In this document: in pieces, positions 6,386 through 22,181 of the stretch
Position numbering within the stretch: the stretch's first letter is position 1
Layout of the letters: each line of letters opens with the position of its first letter
Assembly: GCA_965242525.1 (NCBI GenBank)
Contig: OZ251459.1
Span: forward strand, 3,936,001-4,000,000
DNA: 64,000 nucleotides
Direction of reading: 5' to 3'
DNA from: an uncultured Candidatus Binatia bacterium
GTDB taxonomy: Bacteria; Desulfobacterota; Binatia; UBA9968; JAJDTQ01
Notes under the pieces: model-generated
What the model was told of the DNA's origin: nothing
Seen by the model: the letters and a program-made list of their open reading frames with translations, nothing else
Databases searched by the model: none
Translations under genes and position numbers: made by a program

Positions 6386-7300
6386 TTGATCCATGCCGAC
6401 TGCTTCGACTGGCTGGAGGGCCAGGAACCGAACCGCTTCCATGCAGTGGTGACCGACCCGCCTTACGGCTTGCACGAATACACGCATGAACAGCAGGAGA
6501 AGCTGCGCAGCGGAAAAGGCGGCGTCTGGCGCATACCGCCTTCTTTCGACGGGAACAGACGCTCTCCGCTGCCCCGGTTTACCACGCTGACGCAGGAACA
6601 GTTGGAACGGTTGGGGTCGTTCTTCCTCGTATGGGGGAAGTCGTTGCTTCCGAGACTCGTTCCCGGAGCCCATGTGGTCGTCGCCTCCAATCCTCTCGTT
6701 TCCTACATCGTTTCCACCGCCCTGGCCGAAGCCGGCCTGGAGAGACGGGGAGAGATCGTGCGCCTGACCATGACCATGCGCGGCGGAGACCGGCCCAAGG
6801 CCGCCCAGGAAGAATTCCATCGGGTCAGCGTCATGCCGCGTTCCATGTGGGAGCCGTGGATCGTGTGCCGAAAACCCCTGGAAGGCCGCGTGCAGGACAA
6901 CCTGAGGAAATGGAAGACGGGCGGCTTTCGACGTCCGTCGCCGGACAAGCCCTTCGGCGACGTCCTGGCGTCACGGCCTACGAGGAAGACGGAAAGGGAT
7001 CTTGCTCCCCACCCCAGCCTGAAGCCTCAAGCCTTCCTGAGGCAAGTCGTCCACGCCGCGTTGCCTTTGGGAGAAGGCGTGATCCTCGATCCGTTTGCCG
7101 GATCCGGTTCCACGTTGGCCGCGGCAGAGGCGGTGGGTTACGAGAGCATCGGCGTCGAGAGGGATACCGAGTTCTTCTCGCTGGCGCGCGAAGCGATACC
7201 GAAGCTGGCCAAACTCAAGACCAACGGGAGCGCTACAGCCTGTATATCCAGCTATCCCGTGCAGTTCAGGGAGCGTTTCGACGTGGAGGGTGGAAGATGA
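6386..7300 (+). CDS. Site-specific DNA N4-C/N6-A methyltransferase (beta class)
   Basis: TDPPY catalytic motif precedes HPSLKP and the LDPFAGSGST SAM-binding motif; TTG start uncertain. Confidence 0.88.
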   Translation: MIHADCFDWLEGQEPNRFHAVVTDPPYGLHEYTHEQQEKLRSGKGGVWRIPPSFDGNRRSPLPRFTTLTQEQLERLGSFFLVWGKSLLPRLVPGAHVVVASNPLVSYIVSTALAEAGLERRGEIVRLTMTMRGGDRPKAAQEEFHRVSVMPRSMWEPWIVCRKPLEGRVQDNLRKWKTGGFRRPSPDKPFGDVLASRPTRKTERDLAPHPSLKPQAFLRQVVHAALPLGEGVILDPFAGSGSTLAAAEAVGYESIGVERDTEFFSLAREAIPKLAKLKTNGSATACISSYPVQFRERFDVEGGR

Positions 7301-7545
7301 CGGCACGGCGTGTCTCGGCGACAGAGTTCAAGGCCAAGTGCCTGCGCATCATCAAGGAGATGAATGGCGACGGGCAACCGGTGACCGTCACCAATCGCGG
7401 GCGGGCGGTGGCGGTCTTGTCGCCGATACCGGCGTCGGACGAGCAACCGTCGCCGTTCATCGGCATGATGCGGGGCACGGTGTTGCGGTACGAAGACCCC
7501 TTCGAGCCTGCGGCCTCGCCATCCGACTGGTCCGTCCTGCGGTGA
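7297..7545 (+). CDS. Phd/YefM family antitoxin
   Basis: VSATEFKAKCLRII...PVTVTNRGRAVAVLSP; 82 aa; overlaps the PIN gene start. Confidence 0.9.
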   Translation: MTARRVSATEFKAKCLRIIKEMNGDGQPVTVTNRGRAVAVLSPIPASDEQPSPFIGMMRGTVLRYEDPFEPAASPSDWSVLR

Positions 7546-7793
7546 TCCTGCTCGACACCCATGTGCTGGTATGGTCCGTGGAGGGCCACCCGCGGCTTGG
7601 CGTGGCCGCAGGCGCCCGCATCAAGGAAACGAGACGAACGGATCGGGTCGGGGTGTCGGCCATGACCCCGACGACTTCGGGCCACATGAGCCTCTACCTA
7701 TGGAGCACTATCTGGGTTAGAATGGTTGCCTGGTCGCTCATGTACAGGGTCCATCAGGGGCACGACATGCGCGCGAGCCATCGAGCACATTGA
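7542..7793 (+). pseudogene. vapC: Truncated VapC/PIN toxin
   Basis: VILLDTHVLVW...VGVSAMTP is PIN-like for ~43 aa, then unrelated sequence; later conserved acidic residues absent. Confidence 0.78.
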
Positions 7794-10700
7794 AAATGAC
7801 TCCCTTCATCGACCTCCAAAGACGATTTCGCCAACTGACGGAGAAGGAACTCGAAGACATCGAATCCTTTGCCTATTGGGACGAGTTCCGGATTCACTCG
7901 CGCATGGGCTGGCCGGAGCTGTTGAAGCACCACCGCGTCATCCTTCTGGCAGAAGCCGGGGCCGGAAAGACCGTGGAGATGCGCAAGCAGGCGGAACGCC
8001 TCGTCGAAGCAGGTAAGTTCGCCTTCTTCGTGGCGGTGGAATCCCTCGACCGCGAACCCATCGAAGACGTAATCTCCGCAGACGAGGAAAGGACGTTCAA
8101 GGCATGGAAGACAGACCACGAGGCGCCGGCTTGGTTCTTCCTTGACGCGGTAGATGAGCTGAAGCTCACTCAGGGCAAGCTCGACCGGGCGCTTCGCCGA
8201 CTGGCGAAGGAGATCGACGACCGCCTCCACCGTGCCCACATCATCATTTCATGCCGTCCCAGCGACTGGCGTCCGAACAGCGACTTGGACACGGTACAGG
8301 ACAAGCTGCCGGCGCAGGAGGCCGATCGTCAACCTCCATTCCTGTCATCTGATGAAGTCTTCAGGAGTGCGTTCAGGCATGGTCACGGCGAAGTCAGCAC
8401 CGCAATCCAGCGAAGGAATGTCCTTTTGAGTCGAGAAACCGTGCAAACGGTGGCCATGCTTCCGATGAGCGACGGGCAGATCAAGCTCTTCGCAGAGCAG
8501 TCCGGGGTAGAAGACGCAGCCGCGTTTCTTGCAGAGGTTACTCGGCAAGATGCTTGGACCTTCGCCCGTCGTCCTCTGGACCTGACCAATTTGATCGCCG
8601 CATGGACGAGTTCGGGAGGCTCTGGCTCTCGGCGCCTCGGCTCCCGTGCAGAACAGCACGAAGCGAATGTCACTGCCAAGTTGGAAGACGACCCGGATAG
8701 ACCCGATCGGGGTGCCCTCTCCGGCGCCAAAGCTCGCCTTGGGGCAGAGCACTTGGCACTTGCCCTGGCCCTTACTCGTACACGAACCCTTCGATCACCT
8801 GAACAGACGGTGGACTCTGATCGCTCGGATGGCGTCCTCAAACCCGCAGATCTTCTCCTCGACTGGACCGAGGCAGAACGGCAGGCATTGCTTCGACGCG
8901 CCCTTTTCGGCCCTGCTACCTACGGACGTGTACGCTTTCATCATCGGTCGGTTCAGGAATACCTCGCTGCCCGACACTTGCGGGCGCTACGCGATAGAGG
9001 AATGTCCACGAAGGCGCTGTTTCGCTTGTTGTTTGCGGATGCCTACGGCCTTGAAGTCATGCTTCCCTCCATGCGCGCCATCGCCGCATGGCTCGCGTCA
9101 TGGGATGACGATATCTGCAAGGAGATGGCCAGGCGTGAACCGGAGGCGCTTCTATCGCTAGGCGATCCCGCCACTCTCGACATCGCCGCACGAAAAGATG
9201 TCGTTCGACGGTTCGCGGCCATATACGGCAAGGGAGGTTGGCGCGGCTTGGACGTTCCGATCGCCGAAGTTCGCAGGCTTGCAGATCCGGCTCTTGCATC
9301 GGTGATACGGGAGTGTTGGGGTAGCGAATCGACTAGCTACGATGTCCGCAGGTTGCTGGTCGCGCTGATCTGGCTGGGGCCAGTCAAGGAATGTAGAGAT
9401 CTGGTCCATGACACCGCGCATGACGCCTCCTAGGGTTCCAATCTTCGCGCTATGGCAATCCGTGCCCTGCTTGCTTGCGGATGCAACGCCAGCGTCCGCC
9501 AAATTGCGACCAGCATGTTAGCTCAGCCGGACTCTTGGCCTGATAAAGTCGTGTATGGCGTAGCGGCAGATTTGTTTCCGGAGGTCATCACGGCAGACGA
9601 ACTGGTCACGCTGATGGAGCGAAGGATCGAACCAACCGGCAGTGTCCCCAGTGTCAAGTCCGTATCGCGAAAGATAGCGAGGACCATTGCCCCACGGTCG
9701 AAAGAAGCGGCCGTCCTGCGCAACCAGATGGCGGCTCTCATATGGCGAGGTCGAGAACCTATACAAGAATCCGGCAAGATTCGTAGCACGTTCAGTTATC
9801 TCGCGCCGGCGCTGGCAACGCTGTGCCATCGGCAATTATCCGAGGCTTCGGATGGTCCATATGACGACTTGATCTGGGCCAGTGTGACTGCTTCCCGATT
9901 CAGTGGCAACCATTTCCGTGCATATGAACTGGCGGGTAAGCTCCGGGAGCAGTTTCATGATAAGCCAGAGCTACGAAACTCTGTCTTTTGGGCTGAATTG
10001 GCGTTCATGGATGAGGTCGTTCCGACTGATGATGCCTGGGATCGATTCTACCAGACGCGAAGGAATAGCCTTATAGCCCATCTCGACGAAGCGGATCGAT
10101 CTTGGCTTCTGGCGGCGCTCGCAGACGAAAGCCGGCCAGAACGACGTGCGATTGCGCTTTATGCCTTGATGAGGAACAGAGGTCAGCAAGGGCGAGACGC
10201 TTTGGGGTTGGACGCCATCCGTGACGCCATGAAGGACGACACAGAGTTGAGTCGGATACTGGAAGATCGCACGGTGTCACCCAAGCGAAGCAAAGAAATC
10301 GAGAGGTTAGATCGCAAGCATAGAGATATAGGAATACGTGAGGCACAACGCCTGGAACGAAATATGGAACCTTGGCAGCAATGGCGCGCGGAGTTGCTCG
10401 CTGATCCCGACGATGCTTTCTCAGAGGAGAAGCAGGCAGCGACAGTAGATACACTGTTCTCATGGTTGGAACAGAAGCAGCAACATCGGAATTCCTTCAA
10501 CGCCTGGGACAAGAACCCACTGATACATGCCTTTCGTTTGGACATAGCCGACCGCACTGAACAGGTGATTCGGAAACTCTGGCGTACCAACCAACCGATC
10601 CTCTGGTCTGCACAGCCTGCTGACGAACGAAACAGCATTCCCCGTAAATGGATTCTTGGACTTTCAGGTGTCTCGGCCGAAGCCTCGACTCCGGGGTGGA

Positions 10701-12199
10701 CGGATTCACTTTCGCCCGCCGAAGCCAGGATAGCGGCGGCCTACGCCACCTTGGAGTTGCAAGGCTTTGCCCCGTTCCTCGCCGACCTCGTAGAGTCACA
10801 TCCCCAGGAAGTGGACAAGGTGATAGGTGGTGAAGTAAGCGCCGAACTGAGTGTCGGCGGCGATTCTGACGATCTACCAACCTTTCAACGCCTGACTACT
10901 GCGGAGGGGAAACTCAAGCAGCTTCTCACCCCTCGCCTGCTTGCCGAACTGAAGTCTTGGCCTGACACCTTCACGGACGAGACCGGGCCGCATTGGGCAC
11001 AGCATCTAGACCAGGTATTGCAGATCTTGGACGAGACGACCTGTGGGGCGGACCGGGAGGAAATCGCCCAGATCTGCTCCACTCGCTACGAAGCTGAGCC
11101 ACTCGGCGTGGTAGCGATTGCTTGGCTCAAGGGCTTGTTCCGGTTCGACGCGGTGCGCGGAACGCAGACGCTGGTTGGGAAGTTCATGGACAGCAACGAC
11201 CCGGACATGCGCGAACGGGCGACTCAGACCTTCGCCGCTCTCTTTGGCGACCGATTTGGGAACAGGAATCCTGTCATCTTGAAGATTGACGATCTGGATC
11301 ACCGTGCTCAACTTCTCGGACAACTCGTCCGGATCGCTTATACCTTCGTTCGGCCGAAGGAGGATCAGGTTCACGAAGGGGCTTATTCCCTGAACACACG
11401 CGACCATGCCGAACGCGCTCGTGGAAGTTTGGTTTCTATACTGCTTGACACCCCCGGACCGGAAGCCCACCGCGTGGTCATGGCCTTGGCAGAGGATGAC
11501 GACTTTGCGGACTTGGCCGACCGGATGCGGCTTCGCGCCCGGCAACGAGCGGCGGCCGACGCCGAGTTTGCCGCCCTTAACCCCACGCAGGTTTGCGACC
11601 TCGAAAACGGCTTGGAAGCGCCGCCCACTGACAGAGACAGCCTATTTGCGGTTATGGTGGACCGATTGGAGGATCTCGACCATGACCTGAGAGATTCCGA
11701 TTTCACGGACCAGCGGATACTTCGGAGCATTGCGGAAGAATCGGATATGCAGCGTACCCTTGCCAGGCGACTTAAAGAGGGAGCGAAAGGCGCCTACAGT
11801 GTGACACGCGAAGAAGAGGTCGCCGATGGCAAACATACAGACATCCGGCTTGCCGCTGTCGATGGCGATCAGAAGGCGGTCATAGAAGTGAAGATTGCGG
11901 ATCGTTGGACGTTGAAAAAGCTCCGGCAAGCGCTCCGCAACCAACTCTTGAGCCAGTACTTGCGTCACTCGGACTGCAAGGCCGGTTGTCTTCTGCTGAC
12001 CTACCATGGGAGAAAGCAGCATTGGGTTCACCAAGTTCATCCTGAAAACAAAGAGATACTGACGTTTTCGCAGGTGGTCGAATTGCTGAAGGACGAGGCA
12101 CGAAGTATCGAGAAGGAAGGAGCGTATGACGTTCGCCTTGCAGTAATCGGCTTCGACCTCACCGATTCCTCGCCCGCGCCGGTCCATGGGGGGAACTGA
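7790..12199 (+). pseudogene. NACHT/STAND NTPase with C-terminal PD-(D/E)XK nuclease, interrupted by an in-frame TAG (9431-9433)
   Basis: ORFs 7790-9433 and 9452-12199 share one frame; Walker A AEAGAGKT, Walker B FFLDAVDE, ISCRP, FHHRSVQEYLAA; C-terminal E..TDIRL..VIEVK..QLLSQYL. Confidence 0.8.
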
Positions 12200-12301: not shown

Positions 12302-15007
12302 ATGCCAGCCAGGAAGAAGAAGACGAACCGGGCCGAACGTGGACGGAGCGCCGGCAGTTACGCGCACCCCGAGGCGGGCGCGCTGCTGCGGCCCGACATC
12401 GGCACGCAATCACAGTTTCGGAAGAAGAAGCCGCCGGTCACTTGGCGTTACGATCCTTCGCTCTCCCCGGCCCTCGACTGGGCCGGAAAGGCCGAACGCA
12501 TCTCCTTCGACGCGCCGACCCTGCCCCTGTTCGTGCACGAGCGGCTGTCCACGTCCGCCATCCTGGAAACCCTGAAGGGGCACACCCGCGACCGCCAGGT
12601 GGACATGTTCGACCTCTTCGGGGAGAGCGACCTCCCCATCCGTGACCGGCTGCTCAAGGCATACGAGCATCGCAACGGGTGGGTGAACCGGCTGGTCCTC
12701 GGCGATTCCCTGGTGGTGATGAACTCCCTCATCGGCTACGAGGGCCTCGGCGGCCAAGTGCGGACCATCTACATGGACCCGCCCTACGCGGTGAAGTTCG
12801 GCTCGAACTTCCAGCCCTTCGTGCGCAAGCGCGACGTGACCCACGGCGACGACGAACACATGGTGCGCGAACCGGAGATGGTGCAGGCGTACCGGGACAC
12901 CTGGGAGTTGGGGATCCATTCCTTCCTGACCTACTTGCGGGACCGGCTGCTGCTCGCGCGGGAGCTGCTCCACCCTTCGGGGAGCATCTTCGTGCAGATG
13001 TCCGACACCAATTTGCACCACGTGCGCGAGGTGATGGACGAGGTGTTCGGGCCGGAGTGCTTCGTCTCGCAGATCAGCTTCCAGACCACTTCGGGCTTCG
13101 AGACCAGGACACTCGCTACTTTAGGCGACTTCCTGCTGTGGTACGCACGCGACCCGGATCGGCTGAAGGTGAGGAAGCTGTTCGAGGAACAGCCCGCGGC
13201 GCCCGGCGAGGGCAACGCGAGATGGGTCCTGCTCCCGGACGGCAGCTACCGGGGGGTGAGCGCCGCGGAGAAACGCGGGGAAGCGCCGCTCCCCGAGGAC
13301 GCCCGGCTCTACAAGCCCGACAACTTGCAGGGCCAAGGCGCGTCCCGCGAGCCCCAGCCCTTCGAGTTCGAGGGCAAGGTTTACGAGCCGGGCGCGAATT
13401 CGCACTGGAAGGCCAACTACCCGGCGGGGCTCGAACGCCTCGCTGCCGCGGGCCGGATCCACGCCGCGGCCAACAGCATCCAGTACCGGCGTTTTGCCTC
13501 AGACTTCCCCTACAAGGAGCGGGGCAACCTCTGGACCGACACCCTGACCGGCAGCTTCACGGAAGAGAAGCTGTACGTTGTCCAGACCAACCCCAAGGTG
13601 GTCGAACGCTGCCTGCTGATGACATCCGACCCCGGGGACCTCGTGTTCGATCCCACCTGCGGCTCCGGGACCACGGCTTGGTGCGCGGAGAAATGGGGGC
13701 GGCGGTGGATCACCTGCGATACGTCCCGGGTGCCCATCGCGCTGGCGCGGCAGCGGCTGCTGACGAGCACCTTTCATTTCTACCGGCTCAAGGAACCGGA
13801 GCGCGGTCCGGCCGGCGGCTTCGAGTACCAGCGCCGGCAAAATCGAAGGGGCGAGGAGGTCGGCGGCATCGTGCCCCACGTCAAGCTGGAATACATCGCC
13901 AATGACGAACCGGCCAAGGAAGAGGTGCTGGTGGACCGGCCGGAGACGGACGGGAGCGTCACGCGGGTGAGCGGCCCCTTCTGCGTGGAGGCGACCATTC
14001 CGGCCCCGGTGGAGTGGGAGGGAGATGGTGGGGATGGTTCCGGTGATATTGCCAGCGTCATCACTGGTGACGCGGACGCTACCGGCGCCATCGGTGACGC
14101 CGGCGCCGTCGGCTACACGAGCGACGGCTCCACCGCGGTCGCCCACGCCCGCCACGTCGATCGCATGATCGAGTTGCTGCGGCGCTCGCCAGTGCTGCGT
14201 CTCGGCGGCGGCCGTTCGGTCAGCCTGGCCAAGGTGCGCCGTCCCGCCCGGACCCTGAGCCTGTCCGCGGAAGCGGTGGTCGAGGGCGAAGGAGGGCAGA
14301 GCGCCGGAGAGACGACCGGCCAAGCCGTCGGGCAGAGCGCCGCCATCGTCTTCGGCCCCGAGAACGGCGCGGTCTCGGAGGCCCTGGTGTTCGAGGCGGC
14401 GCGGGAGGCCTACGCCAAGGGTTACGGCCATCTCTACGTCGTGGGCTTCGCCATCCAGCCCAACGCCAGACGCCTGATCGAAGACTGCGAACAGGCGGTG
14501 GGGACGCCCGCGACCTACGTGCAGGCGAGCATGGACCTGGTGATGGGAGACCTGCTCAAGAACCTGCGGTCGAGCCAGATCTTCTCGGTGTGCGGGCTGC
14601 CTGACGTGCGCATCCGGCGGGCGGAGGCGGGGGATTCGGCGGCATCGTCGGCGCAGAGCTACCAAGTCGAGCTGCTCGGCCTCGACGTGTTCGACCCCGT
14701 GGCCATGGACTCCGACCACCGGGAGGGAAACGACGTCCCGGCCTGGTTCCTCGATACCGACTACAACGGGCTCTGCTTCCACGTCTGCCAAGCGTTCTTC
14801 CCGCGAACTTCGGCCTGGGAGGGCCTCAAGCGCTCCCTCCGGGGCGAGTTCGAGGACAGCGTGTGGGCGCACCTTTCGGGAACCCTCAGCGCGCCCTTCC
14901 AGGCGGGAGAGCGCGGGCAGGTCGCGGTGAAGGTCGTCGATGACCGGGGAAACGAGCTGCTGGTAGTCAAGCCCCTCTCGGAGGCGGAAGCAGGGACGGA
15001 GGAGTGA
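12302..15007 (+). CDS. mod: Type III-like RM DNA methyltransferase (Mod)
   Basis: NRLVLGDSL, IYMDPPY, VFDPTCGSGTT, GRRWITCDTS; C-terminal WFLDTDY and VAVKVVDDRGNE; start 12302 or 12281. Confidence 0.88.
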   Translation: MPARKKKTNRAERGRSAGSYAHPEAGALLRPDIGTQSQFRKKKPPVTWRYDPSLSPALDWAGKAERISFDAPTLPLFVHERLSTSAILETLKGHTRDRQVDMFDLFGESDLPIRDRLLKAYEHRNGWVNRLVLGDSLVVMNSLIGYEGLGGQVRTIYMDPPYAVKFGSNFQPFVRKRDVTHGDDEHMVREPEMVQAYRDTWELGIHSFLTYLRDRLLLARELLHPSGSIFVQMSDTNLHHVREVMDEVFGPECFVSQISFQTTSGFETRTLATLGDFLLWYARDPDRLKVRKLFEEQPAAPGEGNARWVLLPDGSYRGVSAAEKRGEAPLPEDARLYKPDNLQGQGASREPQPFEFEGKVYEPGANSHWKANYPAGLERLAAAGRIHAAANSIQYRRFASDFPYKERGNLWTDTLTGSFTEEKLYVVQTNPKVVERCLLMTSDPGDLVFDPTCGSGTTAWCAEKWGRRWITCDTSRVPIALARQRLLTSTFHFYRLKEPERGPAGGFEYQRRQNRRGEEVGGIVPHVKLEYIANDEPAKEEVLVDRPETDGSVTRVSGPFCVEATIPAPVEWEGDGGDGSGDIASVITGDADATGAIGDAGAVGYTSDGSTAVAHARHVDRMIELLRRSPVLRLGGGRSVSLAKVRRPARTLSLSAEAVVEGEGGQSAGETTGQAVGQSAAIVFGPENGAVSEALVFEAAREAYAKGYGHLYVVGFAIQPNARRLIEDCEQAVGTPATYVQASMDLVMGDLLKNLRSSQIFSVCGLPDVRIRRAEAGDSAASSAQSYQVELLGLDVFDPVAMDSDHREGNDVPAWFLDTDYNGLCFHVCQAFFPRTSAWEGLKRSLRGEFEDSVWAHLSGTLSAPFQAGERGQVAVKVVDDRGNELLVVKPLSEAEAGTEE

Positions 15008-15114
15008 GTTTGGTCCGAACCTTGCCTGAATCGTAACAGGGCTGGTAGGTTCTACACGGGAACCGCCTGCATTTGGAATCGTGTGCACGTAATTGCGTTA
15101 TTGGAGGCCGGGCC

Positions 15115-15339
15115 ATGAAGAACATCACCCTGAGCGCGGACGAACACCTGATCGAAGCTGCCCGCCAACGAGCCTCGTCCGAACATACGACCCTGAACGC
15201 GCAGTTTCGGCTGTGGCTGGAAGACTATGTCGGCCGGCGAAGGCATGCGGATGCTGCAATGGCGACCATCGACTCGCTTCATGCAAGCCTGTCCACCAGG
15301 GGCCGCAGATTCACGCGAGATGAAATGAATGAGCGCTGA
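15115..15339 (+). CDS. Ribbon-helix-helix-type antitoxin (VapB-like)
   Basis: MKNITLSADEHLIEAARQRA...TLN...RRFTRDEMNER; GGAGG RBS; precedes a PIN remnant. Confidence 0.8.
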   Translation: MKNITLSADEHLIEAARQRASSEHTTLNAQFRLWLEDYVGRRRHADAAMATIDSLHASLSTRGRRFTRDEMNER

Positions 15340-15450
15340 CGCCTTTATCGACACCAAGGTTTTCGTTCCCTGTACAGCGAAGACCTGCAGCACGGTCAGC
15401 AGATTGCCGGACTGACCATCGTGAACCCCTTCAGGGTATCGGATTCGTGA
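15329..15450 (+). pseudogene. vapC: PIN/VapC toxin with large internal deletion
   Basis: N-terminus MSADAFIDTKVFV joined out of frame to C-terminus LYSEDLQHGQQIAGLTIVNPF; the middle is missing. Confidence 0.85.
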
Positions 15451-15487
15451 AGCAGTCCTACCGCTTGCCGGAAGCCGAAGGGAAATC

Positions 15488-17158
15488 ATGATCCGCACGG
15501 TCCGCATTCGCGGCTTCAAGCGCTTCGACGAGGTGGAGTTCCGCCTGCCGGGGCATGTGGTGTTGGCCGGCCCCAACAACACCGGCAAGACGACGATGCT
15601 CCAGGCCGTCGCTTCGTGGTCGCTGGCTCTACGGCGGTGGCGGGAGCTCAACGACTTCAATCCGCGCCAGGGATACACCCGGGCGCCCATCGCCCGGCAC
15701 GCGTTTTCCGCGGTCCCGCTACGGAGCTTCGACCTCCTTTGGACCGATCGAAAGTACTGGGGGCAGATCGAGATCGAGATCCGGCACGACGCGGGCTGGT
15801 CGGTGACGATGGAGTTCATCTCGGACAGCACCGAGCAGATCTACGTCCGGCCCAGGGCGGACGTACCGGCGGATACATTGCGGGAACTCGATCTTCAGGC
15901 GGTGTTCGTTCCTTCCATGACCGGCCTCGGGATCGACGAGCCCCTGTTTCAACCGCCGAAGGTCGAGCAGCTTCTCGGCTTCGGCCGACCAGGCGAGGTC
16001 ATACGCAACCTGCTTGCGGAGGCCAACCAGGACGAACGCGCGTGGGATGCCCTCACGACGTCCATCGACAAGCTGTTCGGCTACGATCTCCTGCATCCTG
16101 ACGCAAGCAGCGCCCATATCCTCGCAGACTACACCATGACCCCAGGCGGGCCGCGGCTGGACATAGCGAGTGCCGGCAGCGGATTCCAGCAGGTGCTGAT
16201 GCTGCTTACGTTCCTCCACACGCGGCAAGGCGCGGTGCTGCTCCTGGACGAGCCGGATGCGCATCTGCACGTCATCCTCCAGGACGCCATCTATCACGAG
16301 TTGCGGAGCGTAGCCGCCCGGCAGCGATCACAACTCATCGTCGCAACACACTCGGAGGTGGTCATCAACGCCGTCGAGCCCCGCGAGCTGTGCGTTACGC
16401 TCAACGAACCCCGGATGGTCGCCGACAACGAGGAGCGCAGCCGGCTCATTACCTCGTTGCGCGTATTGACCAACGCGGACGTCATGCAGGCGATGGAAGC
16501 GCGCGGCGTCCTCTACGTCGAGGACTACACGGACATCAACATCCTGCGCGCCTGGGCAACGACCCTCGGGCACCGGGCCGCGGGCCTGCTCAACACGGAA
16601 CTGATGTGGAAGCCGTTGGTCTTCCAGGCGCAGGAGGACCGTCGAGGGACCAAGGCGGGCGGGCGAGGGATCGTCGCACGCGATCACTTCGAGGCGTTGC
16701 AACTCGTGCGCGAGGGGCTTCCCGGCTTGGAGCTTCACGACGGGGACGCGCGGCCGCCCGTCCCGGACACGGAGATCACGGGCGCGGGGTTGCAGCGGCT
16801 GCGCTGGCGGCGCTACGAGATCGAAAGCTACCTCCTTCATCCGGATGCGCTCGCCCGTTTCGTCGAGGCGGTGGTGGGAGCCGATTCCGCCGAAGCGCAC
16901 GTCGAGGACATGCTTCGCTATTGGCGCGACGAGTTCCCTCCAGCGGTGGTGAGGGACCCGTTCGGCGAACACATCATCCTGAACAGAACCAAGGCGCGTC
17001 GGGAAATCCTCCCTCCGCTGCTGGACGCAGCCGGACTCTACGGCCTGCCTTACACCCGCTACCACGAGATCGCCGCGCTGATGCGCCCCGAGGAGATCCA
17101 CCCCGAGGTCGTGGAAAAACTCGACGCCATCTGCCGCGCCTTCGGAGTCGAGCCGTGA
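15488..17158 (+). CDS. ABC-type ATPase fused to a TOPRIM-like domain (OLD/PARIS-like)
   Basis: GPNNTGKT, ASAGSGFQQ, LLLDEPDAHLH, IVATHS, VLYVEDYTD, HDGD, YEIESYL. Confidence 0.8.
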   Translation: MIRTVRIRGFKRFDEVEFRLPGHVVLAGPNNTGKTTMLQAVASWSLALRRWRELNDFNPRQGYTRAPIARHAFSAVPLRSFDLLWTDRKYWGQIEIEIRHDAGWSVTMEFISDSTEQIYVRPRADVPADTLRELDLQAVFVPSMTGLGIDEPLFQPPKVEQLLGFGRPGEVIRNLLAEANQDERAWDALTTSIDKLFGYDLLHPDASSAHILADYTMTPGGPRLDIASAGSGFQQVLMLLTFLHTRQGAVLLLDEPDAHLHVILQDAIYHELRSVAARQRSQLIVATHSEVVINAVEPRELCVTLNEPRMVADNEERSRLITSLRVLTNADVMQAMEARGVLYVEDYTDINILRAWATTLGHRAAGLLNTELMWKPLVFQAQEDRRGTKAGGRGIVARDHFEALQLVREGLPGLELHDGDARPPVPDTEITGAGLQRLRWRRYEIESYLLHPDALARFVEAVVGADSAEAHVEDMLRYWRDEFPPAVVRDPFGEHIILNRTKARREILPPLLDAAGLYGLPYTRYHEIAALMRPEEIHPEVVEKLDAICRAFGVEP

Positions 17159-20100
17159 ACGCGCACGAAGTTCCCGAACCCATCCTCAATTCGCCGTTCG
17201 AGGAGCCGAAGGAGCACTGGTGGATCACGGAGCACGATCCGCCGGAGCGGCGGGCGGGCCGGCGCCCGGCCATGTACTTCTATCGGCCCCCGGGACGCGA
17301 AGCTTCACGGGAAGGCCAGGACGCGGGGACGGCCATCGAGTTGAAGCTGGTCAACCGCATCCGCGCCAAGCTTGCCGAGTGGCGGCCCCTGGCCTTGCGC
17401 GGCGAGGGCGGGGTGACCCGCACCACCACGGATCTGCTGCGCTACTGGCGGCGGGAAGGGCGAAGGCATCCGCTGTTCTTCGCCCAGGTCGAGGCGGCCG
17501 AGACCGTCATCTTCCTCACCGAGGCCCGCGAGGACTTCCTGCAAGGCGTGGACGTCCCGCTGGACGAGCCGGGCGAGGAGGCCAGGGCTGACGGCGTCCG
17601 GGCGTTCCGACGCCACGCGTGCAAGATGGCCACGGGCACGGGGAAGACGACGGTGATGGGGATGCTTGCCGCCTGGAGCATCCTCAACAAGGTGGCGGCC
17701 CGGGGCGACGCGCGCTTCTCGGACGTGGTGCTGGTGGTCTGCCCCAACGTGACCATCCGCAGCCGGCTCGAAGAGCTCAAGCCGCAAGGAGGCGAGGCCA
17801 GCCTGTACCGCACCCGCGACCTCGTGCCGTCGCACCTGATGCCGCAGTTGGCGCGCGGCCACGTGCTGGTCACCAACTGGCACGTGTTCGAACCCAGGAC
17901 CGTGCAGGCCGCGGGCGAGACCGCCAGGGTCCTTCGCACCGGGCGCCAGGTCCGAACCCGGGAGACCATCCGCATCGGCGCCCGGACGACGACGGCGCGC
18001 GGGACCCGCTACCTGACCCTGAAGGACCTCGAACGGCAGGCGGCCACCGGCCTAGTTCGCGTCCTCGACGAACAGCGGGACGGCCAGGGGAACCTCAAGT
18101 CGGTCTCCGTGGAGTCCGTCCGTTACGTCGAGAGCGACAGCAAGCTCATCGAGCGCGTGCTCGGGCGCGAGGTGGGAGGCAAGCGTAACATCCTGGTGAT
18201 GAACGACGAGGCCCACCACGCCTATCGCATCCGGCGCGCGGAGCCGGACGAGGACGAGGCGGACCTGTTCGGCGAAACGGACGACGGCGAGGCGTTCTAC
18301 CGGGAGGCGACCGTGTGGGTGGACGGCCTCGACCGCATCCACAAGCATCGCGGCATCAACCTCTGCATCGACCTCTCCGCCACGCCCTACTACCTGGGGC
18401 GGGTCGGGCAGAACGCCAACCGGCCCTTTCCGTGGGTGGTGAGCGACTTCGGACTCATCGACGCCATCGAGTCCGGCCTGGTCAAGATCCCGCAGCTTGC
18501 GGTGCGGGACACGAGCGGCGCCCCCATCCCCGGCTACTTCAACATCTGGCGCTGGATCCTCCCGAAGCTGACCCCGGCGGAACGCGGCGGCCGGCGGGGA
18601 AGCGTGAAGCCGGAGGCGGTGCTCAAGTATGCGCACGTGCCCATGGCCATGCTCGGCGGGCTGTGGGAGGCCCTGCGCCAGGAGTGGAGCGAGGAAGGCC
18701 GTCCGCCGGTGTTCATCATCGTGTGCAAGGACACCGCCCTCGCCAGGGTCGTGTATCGGTGGCTCGCCGAAGACAAGGCGCCGGTGGGGATTCCGCCCGC
18801 GCGCCTCGACGGGTTGCGCAACGCGGATGGGGCCGTCCGCACCATCCGGGTGGACACCAAGGTCGTGCGCGAATCCGACAGCGGGGAGGCGAAGTTCGAC
18901 GAAGACAGGTGGATGCGCGTGACCCTGGATACGGTGGGCAAGACCGACTGGCCGCGGGACGGGCAGGGACGGTCCATCTACCCGGAAGGTTTCGAGGCGC
19001 TTGCCGGGAAGCTCCAACGGCCGCTGCATCCGCCGGGCCGGGACGTGCGGTGCATCGTCAGCGTGGGGATGCTGACCGAGGGCTGGGACTGCAACACCGT
19101 TACCCATATCGTGGGGCTTCGCCCGTTCATGTCGCAGTTGCTCTGCGAGCAGGTGGTCGGCCGCGGGCTGCGGCGGTCCAGCTACACGGTGGAGGAAGAC
19201 GGGAAGCTCGGCGAGGAGGTCGCGAAGATCTTCGGGGTTCCGTTCGAGATCGTCCCGCTGAAGGGGAACCCTTCCGGCAACGAGCCGAAGCCGCCTCCGA
19301 AGACCTGGCGGGTGCGGGCGGTCCCCGGGAAGGCCCGCCTGGAGATCCGGTTTCCCCGCGTCGAGGGTTACGCCCGGGAGATCCGCCACCGCGTGAAGGT
19401 CGATTGGGAGAGCATCGCTCCCCTCCGTCTCGACCCGATGCACATCCCGCCGGAAGTGGAGATGAAGGCAGGGCTTCCGGGCAATACCGGCCGCCCTTCG
19501 CTCGTGGGTCCGGGACGGCTGGAGCGCGTGGACCTGAACCCGTACCGCGAAGAACGGCGCTTCCAGCGGCTGGTGTTCGAGATGGCGCGGGACCTGACAC
19601 GGGACTACCGGCAGCAACCCGGCTGCGACGCCCCTGCCCACGTCCTGTTCGTCCAGCTTGCCGCCATCGTCCATCGGTACCTCAGGGAGAAGGTCCAACC
19701 CGTCGAGCCGGCGCAGAACGTCGATGCGTTCCTCTCTCCCTGGTACGGCTGGATGGTGGAACGGCTCATCGCCGCCGTCGAGCCGGACCACGAGACCGGC
19801 GAGGACGCCGAACTGCCGCGCTACGAGAGCGGCCGCGGCCCCGGCTCCACCGCAGAGGTCGATTTCGAGACCCGGCGGGAGCCCTACCCGGTGGTCAAGA
19901 GCCACGTCAACGCAGTCGTGCCCGACACCGCCAAGTGGGAACAGTCCGCGGCCTACCGGCTGGACACCCACGAGCGCGTGCATTCCTTCGTCAAGAACGC
20001 CTCCCTCGGTTTCGCCATCCCCTACCTGCACAACGGCCAGCACCACGAGTACCTGCCCGACTTCATCGTCCGCCTGACCGGGGACGCCGAACGCTACCTG

Positions 20101-20295
20101 ATCCTGGAAACCAAGGGCTACGACCCCCTCGAACAAGTGAAGTCACAGGCCGCCCAACGGTGGGTGCGGGCCGTGAACGCGGACCGCGGGTTCGGAACCT
20201 GGGACTATGCTATAGTCTCGGACATGGGCAAGGTCGGCGAGGCGGTCGAGCGGTTCGCGAACCAGCCGGATGGTTCAATCGAGGTTGAAGGCTGA
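17155..20295 (+). CDS. res: Type III-like restriction endonuclease/helicase (Res)
   Basis: KMATGTGKT, NDEAHH, DLSATP, MLTEGWD, EQVVGRGLRR, YLPDFIV..LILETKG; GTG overlaps the upstream stop. Confidence 0.9.
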   Translation: MNAHEVPEPILNSPFEEPKEHWWITEHDPPERRAGRRPAMYFYRPPGREASREGQDAGTAIELKLVNRIRAKLAEWRPLALRGEGGVTRTTTDLLRYWRREGRRHPLFFAQVEAAETVIFLTEAREDFLQGVDVPLDEPGEEARADGVRAFRRHACKMATGTGKTTVMGMLAAWSILNKVAARGDARFSDVVLVVCPNVTIRSRLEELKPQGGEASLYRTRDLVPSHLMPQLARGHVLVTNWHVFEPRTVQAAGETARVLRTGRQVRTRETIRIGARTTTARGTRYLTLKDLERQAATGLVRVLDEQRDGQGNLKSVSVESVRYVESDSKLIERVLGREVGGKRNILVMNDEAHHAYRIRRAEPDEDEADLFGETDDGEAFYREATVWVDGLDRIHKHRGINLCIDLSATPYYLGRVGQNANRPFPWVVSDFGLIDAIESGLVKIPQLAVRDTSGAPIPGYFNIWRWILPKLTPAERGGRRGSVKPEAVLKYAHVPMAMLGGLWEALRQEWSEEGRPPVFIIVCKDTALARVVYRWLAEDKAPVGIPPARLDGLRNADGAVRTIRVDTKVVRESDSGEAKFDEDRWMRVTLDTVGKTDWPRDGQGRSIYPEGFEALAGKLQRPLHPPGRDVRCIVSVGMLTEGWDCNTVTHIVGLRPFMSQLLCEQVVGRGLRRSSYTVEEDGKLGEEVAKIFGVPFEIVPLKGNPSGNEPKPPPKTWRVRAVPGKARLEIRFPRVEGYAREIRHRVKVDWESIAPLRLDPMHIPPEVEMKAGLPGNTGRPSLVGPGRLERVDLNPYREERRFQRLVFEMARDLTRDYRQQPGCDAPAHVLFVQLAAIVHRYLREKVQPVEPAQNVDAFLSPWYGWMVERLIAAVEPDHETGEDAELPRYESGRGPGSTAEVDFETRREPYPVVKSHVNAVVPDTAKWEQSAAYRLDTHERVHSFVKNASLGFAIPYLHNGQHHEYLPDFIVRLTGDAERYLILETKGYDPLEQVKSQAAQRWVRAVNADRGFGTWDYAIVSDMGKVGEAVERFANQPDGSIEVEG

Positions 20296-20318
20296 ACCAG
20301 GAAGACGGAGATCAATCC

Positions 20319-22181
20319 ATGGAATACAAGAGCTTTCATATTAAGAACTTCAAGGGTATTTCCGATCAGACGATCAATCTCGGCAAGCGACCGACTGGTA
20401 GGGTATTTACCCTCGTGGGTCTCAACGAATCCGGGAAAACCACGGTTCTGGAGGCAATCAGTTCATTGGAAAGTAGAGAAACGCATCTGGAAGCCCTATA
20501 TCAGGAAGATTTTCCACATGGCGATGCCCATGATTTGATTCCCATGAAGAAAAAAGCCAATTTCAATGAATTGGTAGAAGTCTCTGCTGAAATCTCCCTG
20601 TCCGATCCGGAAGTTGACAAATTGATAAGTTATGCAAAGAGATCTCTCGCCTTCACAGTTGATCGTAAAGAATTCCCAACCGTGATCGGAATGAAAAAAG
20701 AGATGAAGTTCGAGAACTCGAGATACACAGGGACGACCTTTTGGTGGAATATAGATCCGATGGGAATACCGAGTAGAGGAAGAAAGAAGAGAAGACTTTC
20801 TATTCATAGCAAAGAGAAGTGGCAGCAGTTTGTACGTGAGATTAGCAATAACTTGCCCTCCATTCTATATTTTCCGACATTTCTGTTTGATTTCCCAAAG
20901 CGCATCTACGTGAGCTCAGATGCTAAGGAATCCGAAAAGAATACATTTTATTATGACGTAATCAAGGATATACTTGATTCGCTCGACGCTGACCTTGATA
21001 TAGAACAGCATATTGTCGATCGCGCCAGAAATGGTGACTCGCCGTCGCAAAGATCTCTGGAAGCAGTCTTGGCAAAGATGAGCTCGTCGGTGAGCAAGAC
21101 AGTGTTCAAGATGTGGAATAGTATATTTGGAAACAAAAAGAATATCCCCAGAAAGGATATCGTTATCCGTTGCGATACGGAGCCTGCCGGCAATGAGGGA
21201 GCATCGAAGGTTTACCTTGAATTCTTCGTTAAGGATGGGGATGAAATATACCTCATCACGGAACGGTCCCTTGGCTTCCGTTGGTTTTTCTGTTTTATGC
21301 TGTTTACCCAATTTCGCCAATACCGAAAAGAGACAGAAAACACGTTGTTTTTGTTCGATGAACCGGCATCCAACTTGCATTCTCACGCGCAAGCTCAGTT
21401 GCTGAAAAGTTTTATGACGATTATTGGTAGAGGACAAGGCAGGATTCTATACTCCACACATAGTCATTATATGATCAATCCTAGATGGTTGGAGAATACT
21501 TATATCGTCTCTAATGGTAGCCTATACGACAATGACAAGTCCATGTACGAGTATTCTTCGCGTGATGCAGACATACAGATAACGCCATATAGGGAGTTTG
21601 TCAGCCATCATCCCACGAAGACGAACTATTTCCAACCAATACTGGACACTCTTGAACATGCTCCCAGTAGTTTGGAGAGAATCTCTGACGCGGTATTTGT
21701 TGAGGGGAAGAATGATTTCTACATGCTCAAGTACTTCAATGAAGTCATTTTGCGGAATCACGAAACGTTCTCGATCATTCCGGGGACAGGTGCTGGTGGT
21801 TTCGATGCTTTGATTGGTTTGTATCTCGGTTGGGGGAAGAAGTTTATCTTACTACTTGACGATGATAACGCGGGTAGGATGAGTAAGGCAGGGTACATCC
21901 GAGAATGGCAGCCGCAAGAGTTTCTCGTTCTTACATTGAGAGACATCTCACAAGACTGGGCAGGCTTGGAAATGGATAGACTTCTGTCGGAACCAGATGT
22001 TGAGAACATCCGAGCAGATTTTTATCCAGACAAGAAGGGCAGGCCATCGAAGAAGGAAATCTGCCGTGCATTGCAAGAGAAGCTCAGCCGTGAAGATGCA
22101 AGCAATATCTCTGAGGAAACCATTGCTTCGTTTCGAAGGTTGCTGGACACATTGAAAGATAGATTGAATGGTCAGCGGTAG
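20319..22181 (+). CDS. ABC-type ATPase-TOPRIM nuclease (OLD-like)
   Basis: GLNESGKT, SLGFRWF, LFDEPASNLH, YSTHS, VFVEGKND, LLDDDNAG; markedly AT-richer than its flanks. Confidence 0.83.
   Translation: MEYKSFHIKNFKGISDQTINLGKRPTGRVFTLVGLNESGKTTVLEAISSLESRETHLEALYQEDFPHGDAHDLIPMKKKANFNELVEVSAEISLSDPEVDKLISYAKRSLAFTVDRKEFPTVIGMKKEMKFENSRYTGTTFWWNIDPMGIPSRGRKKRRLSIHSKEKWQQFVREISNNLPSILYFPTFLFDFPKRIYVSSDAKESEKNTFYYDVIKDILDSLDADLDIEQHIVDRARNGDSPSQRSLEAVLAKMSSSVSKTVFKMWNSIFGNKKNIPRKDIVIRCDTEPAGNEGASKVYLEFFVKDGDEIYLITERSLGFRWFFCFMLFTQFRQYRKETENTLFLFDEPASNLHSHAQAQLLKSFMTIIGRGQGRILYSTHSHYMINPRWLENTYIVSNGSLYDNDKSMYEYSSRDADIQITPYREFVSHHPTKTNYFQPILDTLEHAPSSLERISDAVFVEGKNDFYMLKYFNEVILRNHETFSIIPGTGAGGFDALIGLYLGWGKKFILLLDDDNAGRMSKAGYIREWQPQEFLVLTLRDISQDWAGLEMDRLLSEPDVENIRADFYPDKKGRPSKKEICRALQEKLSREDASNISEETIASFRRLLDTLKDRLNGQR

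Follow-up and report, generated by a model that had tools for sequence, protein, structure and literature searches.

PrrC is an ABC-ATPase nuclease whose nuclease domain is a HEPN anticodon nuclease. A review on guardians of restriction-modification (RM) systems gives PrrC, for type I systems, and PARIS as those with a tested mechanism (PMC12707154). In PARIS, AriA binds the anti-restriction protein Ocr and a TOPRIM tRNase is released (PMC11464382, PMC12409363). The OLD proteins, whose classes are defined in PMC10568477, include P2 OLD, in which the TOPRIM site opens and tRNA is cut on sensing aberrant or phage DNA (10.64898/2026.07.10.737580). Effectors of the OLD-ABC/TOPRIM kind are reported as backups in BREX and BR (DUF499) systems (PMC12839542), and the same domain pair, as embedded HEC-04, is nested in methylase-based systems (10.1101/2024.01.29.577857). 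Here we describe a locus in a window of 64,000 nucleotides from an uncultured Candidatus Binatia bacterium (contig OZ251459.1, positions 3,936,001 to 4,000,000), where one ATPase-TOPRIM gene, ATP1, lies between the mod and res genes of a type III-like RM system and another, ATP2, follows res. The locus has one candidate guard, ATP1, not two, and ATP1 is likely to be a second line of anti-phage defence.

Sequence comparison indicates that ATP1 is an optional member of a type III-like RM operon and has long resided there; it belongs to one OLD-type clade spread over many phyla, and the conserved unit is mod-ATP1-res. Relatives of ATP1 were taken from a scan of GTDB genomes, and the best 80 of 501 confirmed loci were compared. 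At identities to ATP1 of at least 49%, 37 of 43 loci have mod and/or res adjoining, 33 of them both; of the four with one RM partner, three lie at contig ends and the other, L007, has just a res stub. At 43% identity or less, this Res accompanies none of 37, and of the two loci there with mod traces, L051 has a stub and L072 a type III mod of a different kind. By their record titles, the relatives come from Pseudomonadota, Nitrospirota, Acidobacteriota, Planctomycetota, Myxococcota, Bacillota, Thermodesulfobacteriota and others. RM-linked ATP1 forms a single clade in a FastTree phylogeny of 89 rows (support 100; 43 of 49 clade rows RM-linked), and the clade is recovered in IQ-TREE with 53 rows after near-duplicates and far outgroups were dropped (Shimodaira-Hasegawa-like approximate likelihood ratio test 99). 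A search of plasmids gave no ATP1 match at E 1e-20, and viral contigs hold relatives at 39% identity or less only.

ATP1 and res usually overlap by 4 nt. Measured from aligned ends, with one locus counted twice, they do so at 29 of 45 loci and are no more than 14 nt apart at 40 of 45; mod and ATP1 have an overlap of the same length in 24 of 42. Extra cargo enters mostly between mod and ATP1, as it does in the window; in L036 an insert follows ATP1. In the 35 complete loci, ATP1 and Res are correlated in their tree distances (Mantel r 0.87) and Mod tracks Res at 0.84, with a maximum of 0.38 in 2000 shuffles. Since kin share history, this tracking shows co-transfer, not co-function. The codon composition of ATP1 also agrees with that of its neighbours (GC content at third codon positions, GC3, 0.84 vs 0.88 for mod and 0.90 for res). 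In three close pairs, synonymous divergence (dS) of ATP1 is 0.41-0.57 vs 0.19-0.34 in the flanking genes, which points to alleles having been exchanged within the ATP1 family faster than the genes around them.

Seen from Res, ATP1 is an occupant of a variable slot. We assembled a set of 29 loci picked by Res (at least 50% identity, mod in view), to which the window, five genomes first reached via ATP1, one contig whose res has nothing before it and the loci below 50% do not belong. ATP1 is present in 10 of the 29 (7 of 26 when the genus of the window is removed), mod and res are adjacent in 8, and 11 carry cargo of another kind, for example a toxin-antitoxin pair, a different ATPase pair or a transposase, making ATP1 the commonest single occupant of the slot between mod and res. 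On the Res tree ATP1 is restricted to one clade (support 94; 7 label changes vs 18 when shuffled), and both other complete BPTD_3080 systems in the genome of the window are without it. The idea of ATP1 as an obligatory third RM subunit is ruled out by the 19 of 29 Res-picked loci that do without ATP1.

The slot has a varied population elsewhere as well. A second cargo pair, an ABC ATPase with a protein of about 155 amino acids bearing a C-D-E-F motif, stands right after mod in L031, L036, L042 and L283, all in one Res subclade, with or without ATP1. Pairs of an ABC ATPase and a protein we take to be DUF4276-like fill the mod-res slot of BPTD_3080 systems in L036, L043, L210, L298 and L305. In other BPTD_3080 systems, a radical-SAM-like gene with three Cys residues, presumably DUF5131, stands with a partner between res and mod (L204, 4617-6251; L214, 4387-6017). 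The slot of a Planktothrix plasmid encodes a 354-aa protein whose family is unassigned, with the same 4-nt overlap onto res (L247, 5937-7001).

ATP1 also persists where the RM system does not. Six of the 43 close loci have neither a mod nor a res gene. The five full-length ATP1 proteins among them keep all nine catalytic positions (one with Glu changed to Asp), the sixth (L045) being split, and in none of the genomes of these five was a Res above 40% identity found (0 of 5). Scars of the RM genes are visible: L013 has a mod scar before ATP1 and a res scar after it, L010 a weak mod scar, and the stub in L007 is 100 residues of res. These scars beside intact ATP1 indicate that the RM genes were lost and that ATP1 stayed intact.

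The ATP1 protein consists of an ABC ATPase (residues ~1-327) and a TOPRIM-type domain (~335-556), with the catalytic residues K34, E255, H288, E345, D349, D418, D420, E444 and E446 in place. An N-terminal ABC ATPase with a C-terminal TOPRIM domain bearing a conserved Glu and DxD is the OLD arrangement. A first AlphaFold2 model from a shallow alignment was set aside (predicted local distance difference test score 54). The model used for the fold searches was full-length and so scarcely probes single-domain TOPRIM chains such as AriB and RNase M5; it aligns along its whole length with 6p74, 8u7i and 9lp9, the top match being Thermus scotoductus OLD (6p74) at 17% identity. E345, D349, D418 and D420 align with E462, D466, D514 and D516 of the ATP2 family in hhalign (probability 97.4, with the ATPase part counted in the score). 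The PADLOC AriAB model covers the ATPase part only (residues 244-316), and the AriB model matches one of five relatives tested (E 4.8e-5), a sister-clade one that is the sole match among seven ATP1-family C-termini, ATP1 itself being unmatched. The ratio of nonsynonymous to synonymous divergence (dN/dS) of ATP1 is 0.09-0.23, as under purifying selection.

Two members of the family carry additional regions, neither with a PADLOC match at 1e-25: P0285 has a C-terminal extension of about 320 amino acids with a motif we take to be PD-(D/E)XK-like, and P0296 an N-terminal one of about 257 amino acids, presumably of multi-ubiquitin-repeat type. Three paralogues of ATP1 at 33-45% identity lie on contig C1 of the genome of the window (109887-111620, 180122-182017 and 2072749-2073882); one of them is truncated and lies between a large helicase-like gene, which it follows, and a DUF1156-like methylase.

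ATP2 has a different history. It too fits the OLD definition by sequence profiles (ABC ATPase and OLD-like TOPRIM), with K40, E348, H381, E462, D466, D514 and D516 as catalytic residues; the Walker A and B motifs, H-loop and TOPRIM acidic residues are intact in both proteins. At E<=0.1, PF20469 is matched by 38 of the 62 members of its family (E 0.023 for ATP2 itself), and the best PDB profile match is 6p74 (E 2.6e-9, over the ATPase part). The gene has a GC content of 0.44 and a GC3 of 0.50. Among the best 80 of 440 metagenome relatives, at 35-52% identity (the contexts of the closest relatives, at 55-86%, were outside the scope), none is beside this RM system. In the 43 loci with enough flank (36 short loci were left out and one duplicate dropped), an RM methylase is among the nearest genes in 3, two of type III and one of type I; the remainder neighbour Avs2, CBASS, a retron, AbiEii, Fic or Shedu, or have no recognised gene nearby. 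Among 151 genomes of its class ATP2 occurs in that of the window only, and it is absent from 30 of 30 genomes carrying ATP1 relatives. The position after res is itself variable among congeners, with a truncated ATP2 in L006, unrelated genes in L280 and L282, and no co-oriented gene in L012 and L016. ATP2 is an independent class-1-like OLD gene, low-GC cargo that is likely to have landed there recently and that brings no more than the usual clustering of a defence island; its family behaves as stand-alone island cargo.

A first-pass annotation, made from the letters of the window, had proposed a possible RM system with two backup effectors, with a lack of RM linkage across genomes as one half of its refuting condition. 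Such linkage is found for ATP1, in 37 of 43 loci and one clade, and fails for ATP2, so half of the proposal stands. In the survey of Res neighbourhoods that it had suggested, ATP1 recurs between mod and res.

The reading we favour, and hold with moderate confidence, is that ATP1 is a self-sensing abortive backup, co-expressed with the RM system and acting against phages that evade restriction. On the model of PARIS, P2 OLD and Gabija, the ATPase would bind a signal from the phage, the likeliest being a DNA mimic of the anti-restriction kind and the other candidate exposed phage DNA; the TOPRIM site would then open, and ATP1 would cut tRNA (likely) or DNA and halt the infected cell. Operon residence would keep ATP1 co-expressed and co-transferred with the RM system whose evaders it catches, with no silencing by Res needed. 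This proposal builds on gene order, overlapping stop and start codons, motifs, fold, linkage, optionality, purifying selection and persistence without the RM system, to which an action like that of PARIS or P2 OLD would be added by analogy. The lone intact copies are hard to square with a PrrC-like toxin silenced by Res, a reading that they weaken, and they fit a self-regulated sensor. Several observations weigh against our proposal. No Pfam TOPRIM model matches the C-terminal domain of ATP1 above cut-off, and DUF4435 was found in 2 of 75 family members, at best with E 0.0013. Res and ATP1 share 9 of 32 splits vs 16 of 32 for Res and Mod, and the Mod, ATP1 and Res trees are incongruent, each alignment rejecting the other topologies (approximately unbiased test, 2000 replicates, flagged as too few). 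The linkage can also stem from trapping between two genes that are needed together. Finally, three residues of Res are kept with ATP1 more often than without it, I61 in 39 of 40 vs 5 of 15, K64 in 30 of 40 vs 2 of 15 and R423 in 40 of 40 vs 8 of 15; this putative patch, a lead and not a result, would fit direct binding better than autonomy and points the other way on the question of silencing. Mod showed no convincing ATP1-specific patch.

Direct binding is the core of a possible, if doubtful, alternative in which ATP1 docks on the N-terminal helicase lobe of Res and fires when a phage inhibitor binds or stalls Mod-Res, as PrrC does with EcoprrI. The coupling of ATP1 to res, which persists as most inserts enter between mod and ATP1, and the confinement to one Res clade would both be expected of such a guard, and the group differences at I61 and K64 (0.64 and 0.62) exceed the maximum of 0.57 in 100 label shuffles. 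However, the comparison has 5 phylogenetically independent pairs only and is not significant in a sign test (median p 0.25-0.5), intact ATP1 persists without a cognate Res, and its alleles are swapped faster than the flanking genes. In its boldest form, which we regard as speculative and rather improbable, ATP1 would be a guard dedicated to a type III-like restriction enzyme, the first of its kind, docking on the I61/K64/R423 patch, reading the state of Res and cleaving tRNA when anti-restriction proteins jam it. If this were true, ATP1 would make a fifth OLD class, defined by its RM partner. It is unlikely that ATP1 is an ordinary class-1-like OLD gene, with a trigger unrelated to restriction, that entered the slot once and has been carried along. 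The slot takes up cargo in general (11 of 29 with other cargo, 8 of 29 with none), more distant BPTD_3080 systems carry toxin-antitoxin pairs, other ATPase pairs and transposases there, and many sister-clade relatives are found inside housekeeping operons; in L057, L058 and L065, for example, they separate parA from parB or the subunits of an oxidoreductase. Against this, ATP1 is retained in the same slot at pairwise identities as low as 39%, even though the 7 changes on the Res tree indicate that it is readily lost, and the sister clades recur in other methylase systems.

Still less probable is a helper role, with ATP1 a non-suicidal exonuclease degrading phage DNA from the ends made by Res. 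Translation of ATP1 is coupled with that of res, and T. scotoductus OLD, the top structural match, is a 5'-3' exonuclease in vitro (PMC10568477), but P2 OLD and AriB are tRNases in vivo (10.64898/2026.07.10.737580; PMC12409363), and lone ATP1 stays intact without Res. That ATP1 and ATP2 both serve this RM system is highly improbable. Their co-orientation, the 23 nt between res and ATP2 and the recurrence of this junction in the related genome of L006, there with ATP2 truncated, speak for it; the GC3 of ATP2 (0.50 vs 0.84-0.90), the 0 of 80 relatives at 35-52% identity beside this RM system, the RM methylase near just 3 of 43, and the failure to find ATP2 in the 150 other genomes of the class or the 30 with ATP1 relatives speak against. 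On composition and context we rejected the two-guard model.

The four genes are all co-oriented, with mod and res separated by ATP1, and with ATP2 beginning 23 nt after the res stop, as the first-pass annotation had described (Table 1). The two ATPase-TOPRIM proteins are as dissimilar as it held, the best BLAST segment between them having 21% identity over 96 aa. Its type III-like label for the RM system is also borne out. Mod matches PADLOC MTase_III (PDLC03632) at E 1.5e-139 as well as PF01555, and its DPPY motif at 159 precedes motif I at 450, the beta-class order. Res scores 1020 bits against NCBIfam NF046055 (BPTD_3080 family; cut-off 800) and has a Walker A motif at 159, DEAH at 351 and PD and ETK at 968 and 985. 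Its matches to classical type III Res models are short, with PADLOC REase_III covering just ~46-64 residues, and "type III-like" is therefore an apt label; PF04851 matches at E 2.5e-5, and a PDB profile search returned RadD alone (E 0.0026).

Table 1. Genes and gene remnants of the RM locus and the adjoining defence island, in window coordinates
Feature	Position	Strand	Description
Type II-like DNA methylase	6386-7300	+	PDLC03215 E 1e-109; no nuclease partner seen
phd antitoxin	7297-7545	+	follows type II-like methylase
Degraded PIN-like relic	about 7542-7790		follows phd antitoxin
NACHT anti-phage HyoA homologue	7790-12199	+	NF058534 E 1.5e-183, 4.2e-201 (two halves); in-frame stop 9431-9433
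mod	12302-15007	+	901 aa; beta-class N6-adenine methyltransferase, type III-like RM
Antitoxin-like open reading frame	15115-15339	+	74 aa; between mod and ATP1; presumed label, no profile match
PIN/VapC-like relic	15329-15440	+	presumed label, no profile match; frameshifted, internal deletion; start and end motifs in two frames
ATP1 (ATPase-TOPRIM 1)	15488-17158	+	556 aa; OLD-type ABC ATPase fused to TOPRIM-type domain
res	17155-20295	+	1046 aa; BPTD_3080-family superfamily 2 (SF2) helicase with PD-(D/E)XK nuclease
ATP2 (ATPase-TOPRIM 2)	20319-22181	+	620 aa; class-1-like OLD ATPase-TOPRIM

In the window, ATP1 and res overlap by 4 nt, and the gap of 480 nt between mod and ATP1 encloses what we take, from motifs and without a profile match, to be a broken pair of antitoxin-like and PIN-like genes. 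The antitoxin-like reading frame is likely to be a recent insert, because mod and ATP1 overlap by 4 nt instead in most relatives. The junction of res and ATP2 is spanned with zero differences by short-read contigs of runs X1 and X3, either of which may be the source sample; run X5, with zero cover over ATP2, was not used as evidence. Scans for promoters and terminators were at or below shuffle level.

The RM block closes a lower-GC defence island on the right; the island also includes the type II-like methylase, the phd antitoxin and the split HyoA homologue. The break in the latter is also spanned without differences by the contigs of X1 and X3, and since the two runs agree the split is not an obvious assembly error. 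The HyoA homologue is outside the conserved mod-ATP1-res unit. A homologue precedes mod in L006 too, with a short relic only in L280, and the literature searched held nothing relevant on HyoA/EruA. Contig C1 of the same genome holds two more complete BPTD_3080 systems, one truncated, and one more distant type III system (770489-777504, 4127700-4135973, 3494741-3499988 and 1938974-1943911), and genes we assume to be ABC-three-component-like follow the BPTD_3080 system at 770 kb.

Among described systems, PrrC in the type IC system EcoprrI (PMC12707154) is like ATP1 an optional ABC-ATPase nuclease embedded in an RM operon. ATP1 differs from it in its TOPRIM-type effector, its type III-like Mod-Res host and its intact copies without RM genes. 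PARIS, including the merged AriAB form (PMC11464382), shares the ABC ATPase and TOPRIM domains and is a candidate model for anti-restriction sensing by ATP1, but it was described outside RM operons. The single chain of ABC ATPase and TOPRIM resembles class 1 OLD (P2 Old and T. scotoductus OLD, 6p74), the class that ATP2 fits best. However, class 1 OLD is a stand-alone gene as defined in PMC10568477, whereas the ATP1 clade is beside RM genes in 37 of 43 loci. The OLD proteins of Gabija (class 2) and retrons (class 3) have a UvrD-like helicase or a reverse transcriptase as partner, which is not so here, the neighbours of ATP1 and ATP2 in the window being mod, res, the toxin-antitoxin relic and a transporter operon.

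The BREX and BR backups and embedded HEC-04 share the domain pair of ATP1, and sister clades of ATP1 fall in such loci (DUF1156/DUF499 in 5 of 37, Eco57I-type in 3 of 37). The surveys cover BREX, BR, Hma, DISARM and type I RM, while the ATP1 clade is tied to one Res clade of the BPTD_3080 family (NF046055), in which Res scores above the curated cut-off. That family name, and an OLD clade embedded in type III systems, were not found in the literature searched, though the clade may be listed in Krishnan et al. 2020 or in the supplements to PMC12839542. The association offers natural versions with ATP1, without it and as lone copies, a three-way comparison that asks whether nested defence genes are wired to the host system or merely ride with it, and ATP1 is a potential reporter for phage inhibitors of type III restriction. 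OLD-type backups are already published for loci of BREX, BR and type I RM, and the literature searched held no account of this type III-linked ATP1 clade.

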